In this document: positions 2,909 to 6,484 of the stretch, piece by piece | Layout: every line of letters begins with the position of its first letter | How positions within the stretch are numbered: the stretch's first letter is position 1 | Virus record (IMG/VR): IMGVR_UViG_2734482598_000009 | Source of the DNA: a virus | Taxonomy: Duplodnaviria > Heunggongvirae > Uroviricota > Caudoviricetes | Direction: 5' to 3' (one strand) | Length of the DNA stretch: 6,484 bases | Program-made: the position numbers and the translations under genes | Notes under the pieces: generated by a model | Seen by the model: the letters and a program-made list of their open reading frames with translations, nothing else | Databases searched by the model: none | What the model was told of the DNA's origin: nothing

Positions 2909-3289
2909 ATGACCGAGCGCATAGAATTTGTTTTACCTTACCCGCCGACGGTGAACACTTACTGGCGTCGTCGTGGCAGCACATATTTTGTATCAAAAGC
3001 CGGGGAGCGTTATCGCCGGGCAGTGGCGCTTATTGTTCGCCAGCAGCGGCTGAAATTAAGCCTGTCCGGAAGGTTGGCAATAAAAATTATTGCAGAACCA
3101 CCGGATAAGCGCCGCCGTGACCTGGACAATATTCTGAAAGCGCCGCTGGATGCGCTGACGCATGCGGGGTTGCTAATGGACGATGAGCAGTTTGATGAAA
3201 TCAATATCGTTCGTGCTCAGCCAGTATCTGGTGGACGTCTGGGGGTGAAGATTTATCCCATAATGCTTGAAGGGCAGGTCAAAAAATGA
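2909..3289 (+). CDS. rusA: Crossover junction endodeoxyribonuclease RusA (Holliday junction resolvase)
   Basis: 126-aa product with PDKRRRDLDNILKAPLDALTHAGLLMDDEQF, matching the RusA catalytic core (PDRRRRDLDN...DALT.AG...DD). Start ATG 2909 directly follows the upstream TAA, and stop TGA 3287-3289 overlaps the next ATG. Confidence 0.9.
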   Translation: MTERIEFVLPYPPTVNTYWRRRGSTYFVSKAGERYRRAVALIVRQQRLKLSLSGRLAIKIIAEPPDKRRRDLDNILKAPLDALTHAGLLMDDEQFDEINIVRAQPVSGGRLGVKIYPIMLEGQVKK

Positions 3290-4005
3290 AACTGGAAGAT
3301 TTACCGNNNNNNNNNNNNNNNNNNNNNNNNNNNNNNNNNNNNNNNNNNNNNNNNNNNNNNNNNNNNNNNNNNNNNNNNNNNNNNNNNNNNNNNNNNNNNN
3401 NNNNNNNNNNNNNNNNNNNNNNNNNNNNNNNNNNNNNNNNNNNNNNNGCAGAAATAAAACCGGCAGTGATGCGTATTATGGCTTCGTATGCGTTTGAAGA
3501 TTATGCCCGTAGCGCGGCGAGCAAAAAACAGTGCCCCTGCTGTCACGGAAAAAAATTTATTGAAAGCGAGGTTTTTACAAACAAGATCCAGTATCCGGAT
3601 GGTAAGCCGCCGGTATGGGCAAAGTGTACGAAAGGTGTGTATCCGTCTTACTGGGAAGAATGGAAAAAAGTCAGGGAGGTGGTAAAAGTTGCCTGTCCGG
3701 AGTGTGGCGGAAAGGGTGAGGTTTCCACCGCCTGTAAGGATTGCCGTGGGCGTGGTGTCGCCATTCATCGTGAAGAGTCGGTAAAACGTGGTATGCCTGT
3801 TATCAGAGACTGCCAGCGTTGTGGTGGTCGTGGCTATGAAAGACTACCATCAACGGAGGCATTTAATGCTATATGCGAGGTGACAAACCAGATAACACGC
3901 GCGTCATGGGAAAAAACAGTTAAGAAATTTTATGATGCGCTGGTGACCCGGTTTGATATTGAAGAAGCATGGGCTGAGCGGCAGTTAAAAAAGGTAACTA
4001 GGTAA
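3286..4005 (+). CDS. Late antitermination protein Q (QuuQ-like) with four CxxCxGxG zinc-finger repeats; N-terminal part masked by Ns
   Basis: Lies between rusA and a PR'-like promoter. Contains CPCCHGKK, CPECGGKG, CKDCRGRG and CQRCGGRG. Frame is continuous across the 141-nt N-run (47 codons). Call is positional plus motif; 47 residues are unseen. Confidence 0.65.
   Translation: MKLEDLPXXXXXXXXXXXXXXXXXXXXXXXXXXXXXXXXXXXXXXXXXXXXXXXAEIKPAVMRIMASYAFEDYARSAASKKQCPCCHGKKFIESEVFTNKIQYPDGKPPVWAKCTKGVYPSYWEEWKKVREVVKVACPECGGKGEVSTACKDCRGRGVAIHREESVKRGMPVIRDCQRCGGRGYERLPSTEAFNAICEVTNQITRASWEKTVKKFYDALVTRFDIEEAWAERQLKKVTR
3307..3447. other. 141-nt run of N (masked or unsequenced) inside the Q gene
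   Basis: Literal N characters. Length is a multiple of 3 and the flanking frame is preserved. Confidence 0.95.
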
Positions 4006-4050: not shown

Positions 4051-4086
4051 GGGCGTTTTATGCCTGACGTTAGAAGAGTTTCTACA

Positions 4087-4109
4087 ACCCGCCGCCGAGC
4101 GGGTTTTTT
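4087..4109 (+). terminator. Intrinsic terminator downstream of PR' (tR'-like)
   Basis: Stem CCCGC/GCGGG (4088-4092 / 4099-4103) with 6-nt loop, followed by TTTTTT 4104-4109. Confidence 0.6.
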
Positions 4110-4229
4110 ATGACTGAAATCGCGTCAGTACAGTAAACGCGCTGGTGGCGGTGAATACCTGTCTTTCAGCTTGCTGGCTTTTTCGACAAGAGTTATTGGT
4201 GTGTCACGTTAACCGGAAAAGGAAAAGAC

Positions 4230-4427
4230 ATGCTAAAACAGCAGGATATGACAGAAACCGCCAGAGTGGTGTTTAATGAATTAAGCGTTACCGAACCGGC
4301 GACAGTCGGGGAGATAGCGCAGAATACTTACCTTTCACGCGAACGCTGCCAGTTAATACTGACCCAGCTGGTTATGGCGGGTCTGGCAGACTATCAGTTC
4401 GGTTGTTACAGACGCCTTCCGCAGTGA
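4230..4427 (+). CDS. Small helix-turn-helix protein (65 aa), possibly winged-helix PapI/FaeA-like
   Basis: RBS AAAGGAAAAG at 4218-4227, ATG 4230. TVGEIAQNTYLSRERCQLILTQLVMAGL has an HTH pattern. Family assignment is tentative. Confidence 0.55.
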   Translation: MLKQQDMTETARVVFNELSVTEPATVGEIAQNTYLSRERCQLILTQLVMAGLADYQFGCYRRLPQ

Positions 4428-4437
4428 AGGCTTTTTT
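4414..4437 (+). terminator. Intrinsic terminator overlapping the stop of the HTH ORF
   Basis: Stem GCCTTC/GAAGGC (4414-4419 / 4426-4431) with 6-nt loop, then TTTTTT 4432-4437. Confidence 0.6.
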
Positions 4438-4454
4438 ATTTGTGGTAAATGGGC

Positions 4455-4485
4455 GGCTGGTGGGTGTTAGGGGCACCCACCAGCC
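4455..4485. promoter_or_regulatory. Perfect 12-bp inverted repeat separated by 7 bp (GGCTGGTGGGTG-ttagggg-CACCCACCAGCC); candidate operator or RNA hairpin
   Basis: Exact complementarity of 4455-4466 with 4474-4485. No U-tract on either strand, so it is not a canonical terminator. Lies between the HTH ORF and the methyltransferase. Confidence 0.6.
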
Positions 4486-4577
4486 ATCTGCTCATGCGTT
4501 GGGTTCACAAGCAAACCTCAGGCCCACTGCTTTGCGCAAAAGCAGAATGAGCCTATCAGAGACAGGCTTAATGATCC

Positions 4578-5636
4578 ATGCTTAATACTGTAAAAATATC
4601 CAGTTGTGAGTTAATCAACGCCGACTGCCTGGAATTTATCCGGTCGTTACCCGAAAATTCTGTTGACCTGATAGTCACGGACCCGCCGTACTTTAAAGTG
4701 AAGCCTGAGGGCTGGGATAACCAGTGGAAGGGCGACGATGATTACCTGAAGTGGCTGGACCAGTGTCTGGCGCAGTTCTGGCGGGTGCTGAAACCTGCCG
4801 GAAGTCTTTACCTGTTCTGTGGTCATCGCCTGGCATCTGATATCGAAATCATGATGCGTGAACGCTTCAGTGTGCTGAACCATATTATCTGGGCGAAGCC
4901 GTCCGGACGCTGGAACGGATGCAACAAGGAAAGCCTGCGGGCGTATTTCCCCGCCACAGAGCGCATTCTGTTCGCGGAACATTATCAGGGGCCGTATCGT
5001 CCGAAAGATGCCGGGTATGCGGCGAAGGGCAGTGCACTGAAACAGCATGTGATGGCCCCGCTGATTTCTTACTTTCGTGATGCGCGAGCTGCCCTGGGGA
5101 TAACGGCAAAACAGATTGCAGATGCCACAGGAAAGAAAAACATGGTGTCGCACTGGTTCAGTGCCGGTCAGTGGCAGTTGCCGAATGAAAGCGATTATCT
5201 GAAATTACAGGCGCTGTTTGCCCGGGTGGCAGAAGAGAAGCATCGGCGTGGTGAACTGGAAAAGCTCCACCACCAGCTGGTGGATACGTATACCTCACTG
5301 AACCGGCAGTATGCGGAGCTGCTGAGTGAATATAAACATCTGCGGCGGTATTTTGGCGTGACGGTGCAGGTGCCGTATACCGATGTGTGGACGCATAAAC
5401 CGGTGCAGTTCTATCCCGGGAAACATCCGTGCGAAAAACCGGCAGAAATGCTGCAGCAGATAATCAGCGCTAGCAGTCGTCCGGGTGACCTGATTGCAGA
5501 TTTTTTCATGGGGTTGGGTTCGACAGTGAAAGCGGCACTGGCGCTCGGGCGTCGTGCAATTGGCGTTGAGCTGGAGACTGAACGTTTTGAGCAGACGGTT
5601 CGGGAAGTACAGGATTTAGTCAGCCAGAACGGATGA
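4578..5636 (+). CDS. Orphan DNA methyltransferase, N6-adenine/N4-cytosine family, beta-class motif order
   Basis: 352 aa. Motif IV TDPPY near the N-terminus (DLIVTDPPYF) and motif I FxGxGS near the C-terminus (DFFMGLGST). No restriction endonuclease partner in the window. Weak RBS, and a 5-bp hairpin (4550-4568) lies just upstream of the start. Confidence 0.9.
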   Translation: MLNTVKISSCELINADCLEFIRSLPENSVDLIVTDPPYFKVKPEGWDNQWKGDDDYLKWLDQCLAQFWRVLKPAGSLYLFCGHRLASDIEIMMRERFSVLNHIIWAKPSGRWNGCNKESLRAYFPATERILFAEHYQGPYRPKDAGYAAKGSALKQHVMAPLISYFRDARAALGITAKQIADATGKKNMVSHWFSAGQWQLPNESDYLKLQALFARVAEEKHRRGELEKLHHQLVDTYTSLNRQYAELLSEYKHLRRYFGVTVQVPYTDVWTHKPVQFYPGKHPCEKPAEMLQQIISASSRPGDLIADFFMGLGSTVKAALALGRRAIGVELETERFEQTVREVQDLVSQNG

Positions 5637-5676: not shown

Positions 5677-5752
5677 GGCCCTTTAGCTCAGTGGTGAGAG
5701 CGAGCGACTCATAATCGCCAGGTCGCTGGTTCAAATCCAGCAAGGGCCACCA
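5677..5752 (+). tRNA. tRNA with CAU anticodon, ileX/ileZ-like (probably tRNA-Ile2 read via lysidine; tRNA-Met not excluded)
   Basis: Folds by hand into a cloverleaf: acceptor GGCCCTT/AAGGGCC, D-stem GCTC/GAGC, anticodon loop CTCATAA, T-arm GCTGG-TTCAAAT-CCAGC, encoded CCA. Close to the recalled E. coli ileX sequence. Confidence 0.85.
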
Positions 5753-5759
5753 TCACATA

Positions 5760-5795
5760 CCGCCATTAGCTCATCAGGAAAGAGCGCCAGCCTTC
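5760..5795 (+). tRNA. 5' part of a second tRNA running into the N-run; anticodon begins TC (consistent with tRNA-Arg UCU)
   Basis: Acceptor strand CCGCCAT, then TA, D-stem GCTC ... GAGC, anticodon stem CCAGC and loop starting CTTC before the Ns. Position 1 is C, which is unusual. Confidence 0.3.
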
Positions 5796-6045
5796 NNNNN
5801 NNNNNNNNNNNNNNNNNNNNNNNNNNNNNNNNNNNNNNNNNNNNNNNNNNNNNNNNNNNNNNNNNNNNNNNNNNNNNNNNNNNNNNNNNNNNNNNNNNNN
5901 NNNNNNNNNNNNNNNNNNNNNNNNNNNNNNNNNNNNNNNNNNNNNNNNNNNNNNNNNNNNNNNNNNNNNNNNNNNNNNNNNNNNNNNNNNNNNNNNNNNN
6001 NNNNNNNNNNNNNNNNNNNNNNNNNNNNNNNNNNNNNNNNNNNNN
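5796..6045. other. 250-nt run of N (masked or unsequenced), probably hiding the rest of the tRNA cluster
   Basis: Literal N characters, flanked by a tRNA 5' fragment and a possible tRNA 3' fragment. Confidence 0.95.
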
Positions 6046-6062
6046 GAATCCCCCTGTGCGGA
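6046..6062 (+). tRNA. Possible 3' end of a third tRNA (T-loop GAAT, T-stem CCCCC, acceptor TGTGCGG, discriminator A)
   Basis: GAATCCCCCTGTGCGGA right after the gap looks like a T-arm plus acceptor 3' strand. The implied 5' strand CCGCACA resembles the CCGCCAT start of the fragment at 5760. No encoded CCA. Confidence 0.2.
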
Positions 6063-6170
6063 GGGGCAATCAGCGAGTAGGTATATGGGATAATCGCGGA
6101 TTCAGGTGCTGGTACTGAATTCACCGGGAGGCACCCGGCATCATGCAATGGCACATAGCGCCACTCTCCA

Positions 6171-6191
6171 GCCCTCTCCGGAGGGGCTTTT
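6171..6191 (+). terminator. Terminator-like hairpin with T-run
   Basis: Stem CCCTC/GAGGG (6172-6176 / 6181-6185) with TCCG loop, then GC and TTTT (6188-6191). The U-tract is short and offset by 2 nt. Confidence 0.35.
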
Positions 6192-6377
6192 CTGTGCCGG
6201 ATACATCACAGTTTCTGGAACCTTAGGTACTACAGTATCAGTCAGGGTGCTATATTTTCAGATGTGATGAAAGCCTGTCAGCAGGCAGGGCGTATCGGAA
6301 ATGACCCAGTAGAGAAAACGTTGACTCAGATACCGGTGCTGAGTTACCGGGAAACCGGCATCACATGACCGCTATCC

Positions 6378-6484
6378 TGAGGTGTACTGGCAATAGCGGA
6401 CACTACCATTTGTTCTTTTTTTAAGCAGCCATCTGATGATATTTTTCCCTGAAGGCTGCCGGGGAGATATTCCCCAGACGAGAG
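6378..6484. repeat. Right copy of the 107-bp perfect terminal inverted repeat (partner 1-107)
   Basis: Exact reverse complement of 1-107. On the minus strand it repeats the first 11 codons of the left-end ORF, then diverges and stops after 21 codons. Confidence 0.9.

Follow-up and report, generated by a model that had tools for sequence, protein, structure and literature searches.

The window analysed here is a stretch of 6,484 nucleotides of a Caudoviricetes virus record (IMGVR_UViG_2734482598_000009), in which a perfect palindrome and two small hairpins lie directly before the gene of a DNA adenine methyltransferase. The palindrome and the two hairpins probably (at a probability of about 0.6) belong to a single conserved 5' leader RNA that acts in cis and has two alternative states; its likeliest role is that of a translational switch. 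The element is conserved and linked to the methyltransferase, base pairs covary in both of its folds, and the gene behind it lacks a Shine-Dalgarno (SD) sequence.

Methyltransferases of the M.EcoGII family are in use for chromatin-mapping tools. These enzymes are non-specific for adenine and methylate every accessible one; they are silent in lysogens and deleterious if expressed constitutively, and how the native gene stays off is unexplained (PMC5778455).

An original prediction, made from the letters of the window, had reported a small helix-turn-helix (HTH) gene, a terminator, the palindrome and the two hairpins, and had taken the palindrome either for the operator of a dimeric HTH protein or for a very stable RNA hairpin other than a canonical terminator. 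Its observations are confirmed and its interpretation is partly supported. The RNA hairpin is borne out, and it is not a terminator, the palindrome being followed by AUCUGCU and not by a U tract. Gating of methyltransferase expression by the region is, as a general idea, probably right too. Its preferred form, a controller protein with a DNA operator and a possible PapI-like methylation switch, is unsupported, one reason being that the symmetry of the palindrome is not conserved at the level of DNA. The features of the leader and of the gene behind it are the following.

4448-4580, + strand: entire conserved leader of the methyltransferase mRNA, ~130 nt (covariance-model match 4434-4592, 153 bits)
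4450-4454, + strand: 5' strand UGGGC, pairing with 4522-4526 (P1, Fold I) or 4490-4494 (P1alt, Fold II)
4455-4485, + strand: helix P2, the palindrome (92.8% paired; 10 of 12 pairs with double changes)
4487-4515, + strand: P3 of Fold I, UCUGCU 4487-4492 with AGCAAA 4510-4515 (6 of 6 pairs with double changes, 79.6% of cells paired)
4521-4553, + strand: P4', extension of P4 in Fold II, GGCCCA 4521-4526 with UGAGCC 4548-4553
4527-4533 / 4539-4545, + strand: P4 hairpin (all 5 pairs covary, 89.2% of cells paired)
4547-4571, + strand: P5 of Fold I (6 of 6 pairs with double changes, 71.4% of cells paired)
4565-4580, + strand: 3' strand of helix H (Fold II) and start codon; GGCUU..UGAUCC pairs with the P3 loop and P3 3' strand (4502-4513)
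4573-4576 and 4578-4580: GATC and ATG
4578-5636, + strand: gene of an M.EcoGI/GII-family beta-class N6-adenine DNA methyltransferase (Pfam N6_N4_Mtase, PF01555, E = 8e-42)
4588-4603, + strand: CTG-N10-CAG motif with an A/T-rich spacer, either LexA-box-like or a small hairpin, within methyltransferase codons 4-9

Conservation of the leader and its linkage to the methyltransferase

Related loci, cited below by their collection numbers (L004 and the like), were gathered through the HTH protein (24 from other species and 80 viral contigs) and through methyltransferase homologs, the latter giving 199 methyltransferase-anchored loci with more divergent versions of the leader. A covariance model built from 30 sequences matches 163 of these 199 loci, from Escherichia to Aeromonas, and covariation was assessed in an alignment of 100 distinct sequences. 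All matches are on the + strand and end at ATG+15, or, in the Aeromonas type, at the start of a Com-like open reading frame (ORF). The element has the compensatory changes, the strand specificity and the fixed position before the methyltransferase (in the Aeromonas type, before the Com-like ORF) of a cis-regulatory RNA. Moreover, the RNA of 4400-4600 folds with z = -4.25 relative to shuffles.

Over at least 12 genera, the spacer between the HTH stop codon and the methyltransferase ATG is better kept than the HTH ORF itself (53-98% amino acid identity). A homolog of the HTH gene is present in 91 of the 163 element-bearing loci and absent within ~1.5 kb upstream in the other 72, and where the methyltransferase is replaced, the leader breaks off at the junction; the element therefore travels with the methyltransferase. 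Such replacement junctions lie inside the leader at ~1880 in L114, at ~1765 / 3270 in L113/L036 and at ~3260 in L019, that of L114 (PhiR5_1) being immediately 3' of the arm of the palindrome that contains a Chi site.

A scan of the + strand of the window with Rfam 15 gave no match to the leader at E <= 1, and the only Rfam match overlapping the leader is P26, on the - strand, with 24 bits against a gathering score of 36; the scan of five divergent loci gave no match either. In a literature search of incomplete coverage, no relevant methyltransferase leader motif was found described.

Several database records translate the leader as protein, such as the 1200-nt 'DNA adenine methylase' coding sequence of phage 48ST307 (L106), which is annotated 138 nt too long. 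In the same locus, a pR'-like promoter/terminator unit is preceded, at 1183-1260, by two direct copies of the inverted repeat AAAACTGTGCGACC(A/G)(C/T)GGTCGCA(C/T)AGAAAGAAAA. Furthermore, a second, different conserved leader (GCCTTGAGTACCTGAGACCC ... GGAGAGGAAGCA ... TCAAGGC) stands before other methyltransferase homologs (L168, L177 and L185, ~1370-1500), behind a near-perfect LexA box (TACTGTATAAAAATACAGTT in L168), and in L167 (~1175-1225) it occurs in tandem with the leader studied here.

Other readings of the same nucleotides were tried and rejected. A promoter within the leader (TGTGGTAAAT / CTGTGAAAAT, extended -10-like) was dropped, as the promoter scan found none and the motif is inconsistent across clades. 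A small ORF overlapping the methyltransferase start (AUG/GUG at 4547) lacks its start codon in the Klebsiella type, and a 60-aa ORF at 4403-4585 has no Pfam match and is broken by 1-nt indels among homologs. Pairing of the C-terminal codons of the HTH gene with the methyltransferase start, which is present in the minimum free energy structure of the window, is not kept in other genera.

Helix P2

The inverted repeat is present as had been described, with two perfect 12-bp arms (GGCTGGTGGGTG / CACCCACCAGCC at 4455-4466 / 4474-4485) and a 7-nt spacer, and a perfect 12-bp repeat with a loop of 3-10 nt arises in 1 of 300 shuffles of the window (analytic expectation 0.003). The symmetry expected of an operator is not what homologous loci conserve: among 50 distinct sequences the 5' arm GGCTGGTGGGTG is invariant, whereas the 3' arm occurs in 16 variants. 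Even where the HTH protein is identical (80 loci), the perfect palindrome is found in 22 and a CACCTGCCAGCC 3' arm in 46, the latter giving two G·U pairs as RNA and two mismatches as DNA. Another 3' arm, CACCCGGCCAGCC, gives a 1-nt bulge.

In total, P2 is known in at least 13 compensated arm versions of differing sequence, with frequent G·U pairs. The arms of the Providencia type are different and fully compensated, those of Klebsiella phage 48ST307 read CTACAGCATG / CATGCTGTAG, and those of Aeromonas phage PhAER-2 read GGCCACCCTCTG / CAGAAGGTGACC, the outer helix changing there from UGGGC/GCCCA to GUGGC/GCCAC. Since both arms have been exchanged in other clades for unrelated, mutually complementary sequences, what is conserved is a folded strand and not an operator; and, as every G·U pair would turn into an A·C mismatch if the opposite strand were folded, the + strand is marked as the folded one. 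From these comparisons the palindrome appears to be helix P2 of the leader RNA rather than a protein operator.

Two mutually exclusive folds

Fold I comprises five helices, in which 86.5% of the alignment cells are paired, compared with 30-40% in slid-partner controls; double changes occur in 32 of its 36 pairs, and none of 500 shuffles reaches the observed values. P1 and P2 are also found de novo by RNAalifold, and P1 is paired in 99.8% of the cells, three of its five pairs covarying (UA/GC, GC/UA, GC/AU). The hairpins of the original prediction both have their place in this fold: the one formed by CTGCTTT/AAAGCAG (4527-4533 / 4539-4545) is P4, and the one detected at 4550-4568 is part of P5, so that an initial impression that it was unconserved proved wrong.

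Fold II comprises P1alt and P2, helix H (GGUCAC-AAGCG with CGCUUAC-UGAUC) and P4' with P4, and 86.4% of its cells are paired. Helix H and P4' covary although the alignment was fitted to Fold I: the inner pairs of helix H include 93-178 (AU39/GC27/GU20) and 96-174 (GC53/AU35), and P4' pairs alignment columns 108-153 (GC55/AU21/GU17) and 114-144 (CG49/UA17). A loop-to-start pseudoknot of Fold I (GGUCA x UGAUC), which had been considered, shows one-sided variation and has been recast as the outer part of helix H.

The two folds share strands. With few exceptions, the sequences allow the 5' strand (A)UGGGC(G) to pair at either of two sites, site 1 directly after P2 and site 2, GCCCA, ~70 nt downstream, and concerted partner changes are seen at both sites in the Aeromonas type, at site 2 in L024 and at site 1 in the AUAGGCG variant (L291). 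The nucleotides 4489-4495, in P3, also serve as site 1 of P1alt, and the P3 loop holds a conserved G(G/A)UCAC motif (4502-4508). Helix H covers the bases directly 5' of the AUG, which Fold I frees. Folds I and II are thus mutually exclusive, and both covary.

Thermodynamic predictions favour P1alt in 79 of the 100 sequences. In loci with the HTH gene, Fold II is predicted to be dominant (median probability 0.99), the start region being 0.32 unpaired; in Klebsiella N15-like loci, which have no HTH gene and in which the methyltransferase is the first late gene, Fold I is favoured and the start region is 0.8-0.9 unpaired.

The start region and the methyltransferase

The weak ribosome-binding region noticed earlier is real, as the methyltransferase ATG at 4578 has no usable SD sequence. 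Among 91 leader-bearing genes, the median energy of the anti-SD duplex is -3.2 kcal/mol and none reaches -6, whereas eight of nine leader-less homologs checked have values of -5 to -11.6 kcal/mol (the ninth, L225, has -4.0). The leader-less homologs carry either an AGGAG-type SD, or a Com-type zinc-ribbon gene (PF10122), or a LexA box followed by the second conserved leader. Com-type zinc ribbons stand directly before, and overlap, the methyltransferase homologs of L107 (1329-1508, PF10122, E = 1e-8) and L182 (1338-1529, 6e-12), and in the Aeromonas phage a Com-like ORF lies between the leader RNA and the methyltransferase; no com gene is found among the ORFs of the window, which does not qualify as Com-dependent. 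In Mu, translation of mom is activated by Com, and further non-specific adenine methyltransferases are likewise preceded by com homologs (PMC3299994). Given genes with the leader and no SD on the one hand, and leader-less homologs with an SD or Com on the other, post-transcriptional gating is the most economical reading.

The enzyme is 95% identical to that of phage 1720a-02, which the M.EcoGII paper names as a very similar homolog (PMC5778455), and this places it in the M.EcoGI/GII family. Its translation shows DPPY and FMGLG, in agreement with the order DPPY ... target recognition domain ... FxGxG of that family, and by family membership the enzyme is presumably of the non-specific adenine type. 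The label 'orphan' given to it is fair, because tRNA genes follow it and no restriction endonuclease gene does. Records of 933W-like Stx2a phages retain no more of the methyltransferase than its final 37 codons, upstream of the tRNA/stx region; these remnants suggest repeated loss of the gene along with its leader.

The CTG-N10-CAG motif inside the gene is kept in 84 of the 91 leader-bearing genes, and as CTGT-N8-ACAG in 70 of them, with two synonymous positions that appear constrained. It is intracoding and has no nearby promoter, and besides a LexA box, the demands of the protein sequence or a small hairpin in the RNA would explain it equally well.

The winged-helix protein

The HTH gene is present as an ATG-initiated ORF of 65 codons, and the terminator after it as a hairpin at 4414-4431 followed by TTTTTT.

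4230-4427, + strand: gene of the 65-aa winged-helix protein, the ORF that opens the late transcript, an optional companion of the leader
4414-4437, + strand: intrinsic terminator, which overlaps the HTH ORF at its 3' end (GCCTTC-CGCAGT-GAAGGC, then TTTTTT)

The protein had been proposed to be a controller (C-protein-like) or PapI/FaeA-like regulator. Its AlphaFold model (predicted local distance difference test score 90.9) has three helices and a beta-wing, a winged helix and not an Xre-type HTH, and its Pfam matches are all below threshold (TrmB, E = 0.0026; MarR_2; DprA_WH), with no HTH_3 among them and no FaeA at E <= 1. Foldseek returns generic winged helix-turn-helix matches (OhrR/MarR, IclR, winged-helix domains of O-methyltransferases, MotA, SelB), and neither PapI nor FaeA is among the top 50 PDB matches. 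The family counts 334 homologs, most of them labelled 'TrmB family'. As modelled, the protein is a generic winged helix, neither C-protein-like nor PapI-like; PapI and FaeA are winged helices too, and a very remote kinship with them is conceivable.

A hairpin comparable to the terminator stands upstream of the leader in most clades and is missing in the Providencia/Morganella type. Where the HTH gene is present, its stop codon lies 5-25 nt 5' of the switching strand (22 nt in the window), a position that suggests coupling through terminating ribosomes. An RNA-binding role of the protein itself is possible.

Chi sites

The exact Chi octamer GCTGGTGG is found in the 5' arm of P2 (4456-4463, + strand) and, on the - strand, in the 3' arm (4477-4484), the latter being exclusive to the perfect-palindrome variant. 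The window holds ten exact Chi sites in 6.5 kb, where shuffles lead to an expectation of 0.24.

872, 2017, 2075, 4141, 4456 and 5276, + strand: Chi sites
2481, 2533, 4477 and 5270, - strand: Chi sites

Related loci carry ~1.06 Chi per kb, mainly on the top strand, the orientation in which Chi is active when RecBCD enters at the right cos end (PMC12315714). Chi-rich lambdoid phages are a published class (PMC12315714; Bobay 2013, PMC3784561), into which the density of the window fits. The 5' arm is invariant wherever Chi occurs, and half of the distinct elements lack Chi. The asymmetry of the arms, with one variant against 16, agrees with an additional constraint that acts on the 5' arm as DNA. 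Helix P2 persists in clades without Chi, which is therefore not the cause of the helix. The overlap of Chi with a conserved structured-RNA helix was not found described in the literature.

Within the methyltransferase gene, CCACCAGCTGGTGG (5270-5283) is a palindromic pair of overlapping Chi sites in opposite orientations, and it is kept at the same place in other genera (e.g. L004, 4035/4041).

Proposed mechanism and alternative explanations

In the mechanism that we propose, the leader RNA would be made exclusively when Q-modified RNA polymerase reads through the late-operon terminators. In Fold II, the closed state, UGGGC would pair just after P2 into one long hairpin, and helix H would bury the bases -2 to -17 before the AUG. 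In Fold I, the open state, UGGGC-GCCCA would close a three-way junction of P1, P2 and P3, P5 would form, and UGAUC-AUG would be left single-stranded. As the methyltransferase has no SD, the balance between both folds would decide whether ribosomes start, and the switch would keep a harmful, non-specific methyltransferase tightly limited. Candidate triggers are ribosomes finishing the HTH ORF, the winged-helix protein acting on the RNA in a Com-like manner, the methyltransferase itself or a small ligand.

Several points weigh against this switch. The translational control, the assignment of the 'on' state and the trigger are all inferred from the anatomy of the element, and an SD-less start could use other initiation routes for which no switch is needed. 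The pairing percentage of Fold I is inflated, as the alignment was fitted to it, and the cell counts overstate the independent events, many sequences being related. P5 and P4' are each paired in a mere 71-82%, and helix H in its outer part (GGUCA x UGAUC), at 91% paired, varies on one side, which neither supports nor refutes it. Finally, the correlation between the presence of the HTH gene and the predicted fold is weakened by phylogeny, which confounds it, and Eeyore, L183, L194 and L176, which lack the HTH gene, also favour Fold II.

Two of the alternatives place the function of the palindrome at the level of DNA. That the 65-aa protein is a C-protein-like or PapI-like controller, binding the palindrome as a dimeric operator and gating transcription of the methyltransferase, is very unlikely. 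Although a winged HTH is confidently predicted, adjoins the palindrome in the window and in the 91 HTH-bearing loci, and 5' arms with Chi show no variation, only one half-site is kept against 16 versions of the other, the identical protein goes with perfect or imperfect palindromes, other clades have unrelated but complementary arms, and 72 loci retain the element without the protein; moreover, the site is 3' of the HTH gene and its terminator, in a Q-antiterminated unit in which the scan found no promoter to repress, and matches to Xre/HTH_3 or FaeA are missing. A primary role of the palindrome as Chi, doubled head-to-head in the window and serving to protect or recombine phage DNA, with RNA pairing as a secondary matter, is also distinctly improbable. 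It would account for GCTGGTGG lying in the 5' arm on the top strand, in the active orientation (PMC12315714), for the excess of Chi in the window and its density in related loci, for the invariance of that arm and for the recombination junction right after it in L114, but not for the compensated helix of the Chi-less Klebsiella 48ST307, Aeromonas, Providencia, L194 and L176, nor for the half of the distinct elements that have no Chi. Chi looks like a layer added onto the RNA helix rather than its cause.

The other alternatives accept an RNA and differ on what it does. A true riboswitch, with the P1/P2/P3 junction as an aptamer (e.g. for S-adenosylmethionine, SAM, or S-adenosylhomocysteine) setting the balance of the folds, is unlikely: the two exclusive, covarying folds, the highly conserved nucleotides of junction and loops (AAUGGGC, GGUCAC, GCCCA) and the position directly before a SAM-dependent enzyme speak for it, but the leader matches none of the known riboswitch families, its P2 and P3 loops differ considerably among clades, no ligand can be deduced from the sequence, and sensing a metabolite would be of no obvious use to a late-operon gene in a dying cell. 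There is likewise a small chance that the element is mainly a device of RNA processing or stability or a released small RNA, such as a site for RNase III/E or a 5' hairpin of protective function, which would uncouple the message of the methyltransferase from that of the long late transcript. The P1alt-P2 duplex, near-perfect over ~20 bp with one internal loop, does resemble an RNase III substrate, and an element placed after a terminator could make a stable 5' end; nevertheless, conservation and covariation reach the start codon and include the pairings that sequester it, and stability alone leaves the strict tie to SD-less starts unexplained.

A bolder version of the translational switch is tentative and rather doubtful: the leader would represent an undescribed class of bistable regulatory RNA, licensing the translation of non-specific adenine methyltransferases solely in the late lytic phase by a dedicated trigger, with P2 doubling as an active Chi, so that 12 nt would serve at once as an RNA structure and as a signal for DNA recombination. 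The trigger might then be terminating ribosomes on the winged-helix ORF, the winged-helix protein as a Com-like RNA-binding activator, or methylation of adenine (m6A) in the leader by the methyltransferase.

Gene order and prophage context

The window is the junction between Q and the late operon (early/late) of a lambdoid E. coli prophage. The gene order is sok/hok, a DUF968 gene, RusA, Q, a terminator, the 65-aa ORF, the PF01555 methyltransferase, a tRNA and masked sequence.

947-1272: sok antisense RNA (112 bits) and hok/gef toxin ORF
3286-4005: Q antiterminator gene (PF03589)
4086-4111, + strand: intrinsic terminator, tR'-like, just 3' of the Q gene (stem AACCCGC/GCGGGTT, 4086-4105, then TTTTTT)
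5677-5752: tRNA with a CAT anticodon, annotated as tRNA-Ile in an identical chromosomal copy, with two tRNA-Arg genes next

N-masked runs at ~3307-3450 and ~5753-6040 hide part of the Q gene and the two tRNA-Arg genes. A chromosomal copy, 99.7% identical, has the same order and continues with tRNA-Ile/Arg/Arg, a SASA family carbohydrate esterase, holin and lysozyme. A hairpin followed directly by a U tract, as in intrinsic terminators, is found at 4086-4105 and at 4414-4431. The terminator at 4086 is the left edge of a module common to phages with differing Q genes, at which many matches start, and what follows from 4086 on is shared with Stx2 phages, phiP27, SfV, mEp460 and numerous E. coli genomes. 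As this segment is joined to different Q genes, its place is within the late operon, downstream of the promoter/terminator unit that is specific to Q.

Two further small RNAs (sRNAs) are matched in the window. After sok/hok there is a weak isrK-like match (1281-1362, 25.7 bits, under threshold), and an STnc100 match above the gathering score (69.8 bits) lies at 6017-6199, with a weaker second copy at 6238-6426. According to a 2026 preprint, STnc100 is a relative of the PasD sRNAs, which occur in prophages close to Q genes. The leader was considered as a known prophage sRNA and rejected as such, since AsxR and AgvB are convergent sRNAs downstream of morons and since the Pas candidate, PasD, corresponds to 6017-6199.

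Significance and comparison with known systems

A two-state leader on an SD-less start offers a concrete, testable mechanism by which an M.EcoGII-family gene might be kept off. The motif is widespread (~160 loci, Escherichia to Aeromonas), absent from Rfam and apparently undescribed, and it corrects the annotation of the records in which the leader is translated as protein. In addition, Chi within P2 would be a clean example of overlapping constraints at the DNA and RNA levels.

The motif ties a lambdoid version of this control to the classic paradigm of Mu com-mom. As in Mu, a late, host-harmful DNA-modification gene would have its start region in an RNA structure and be released post-transcriptionally, and Com-type genes (PF10122) do stand directly before the methyltransferase relatives of L107 and L182. 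In contrast with Mu, the window has no com, the leader is far larger (~130 nt, five helices, two global folds) and unrelated in sequence, and transcription depends on Q antitermination and not on Mu C, Dam and OxyR.

The strand-sharing, exclusive helices, one of which occludes the ribosome-loading region, are similar to those of riboswitches and other expression-platform switches and of long-range translational coupling (e.g. MS2, or ribosome-dependent leader remodelling), as are the strong covariation and the upstream ORF ending a few nt before the switching strand; the leader differs from them in that neither a ligand nor an aptamer family could be assigned, that regulatory codons in a leader peptide are absent and that Rfam gives no match.

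The controller (C) proteins of restriction-modification systems are Xre-type HTH proteins whose C-boxes, to which they bind, lie upstream of the gene encoding them, and they set the time at which the restriction enzyme is expressed. With these systems the window shares a small HTH gene adjoining a methyltransferase gene, with an inverted repeat nearby. However, the HTH is here a winged helix, the repeat is downstream of its gene, one arm is kept, no endonuclease is encoded and the repeat behaves as an RNA helix.

Finally, dense, mainly top-strand clusters of Chi toward the genome's right end are also known from Chi-rich lambdoid phages (PMC3784561, PMC12315714), from which the window differs in having one Chi embedded in the 5' arm of a conserved RNA helix; with Chi in that position, two constraints appear to act on one stretch of 12 nt.

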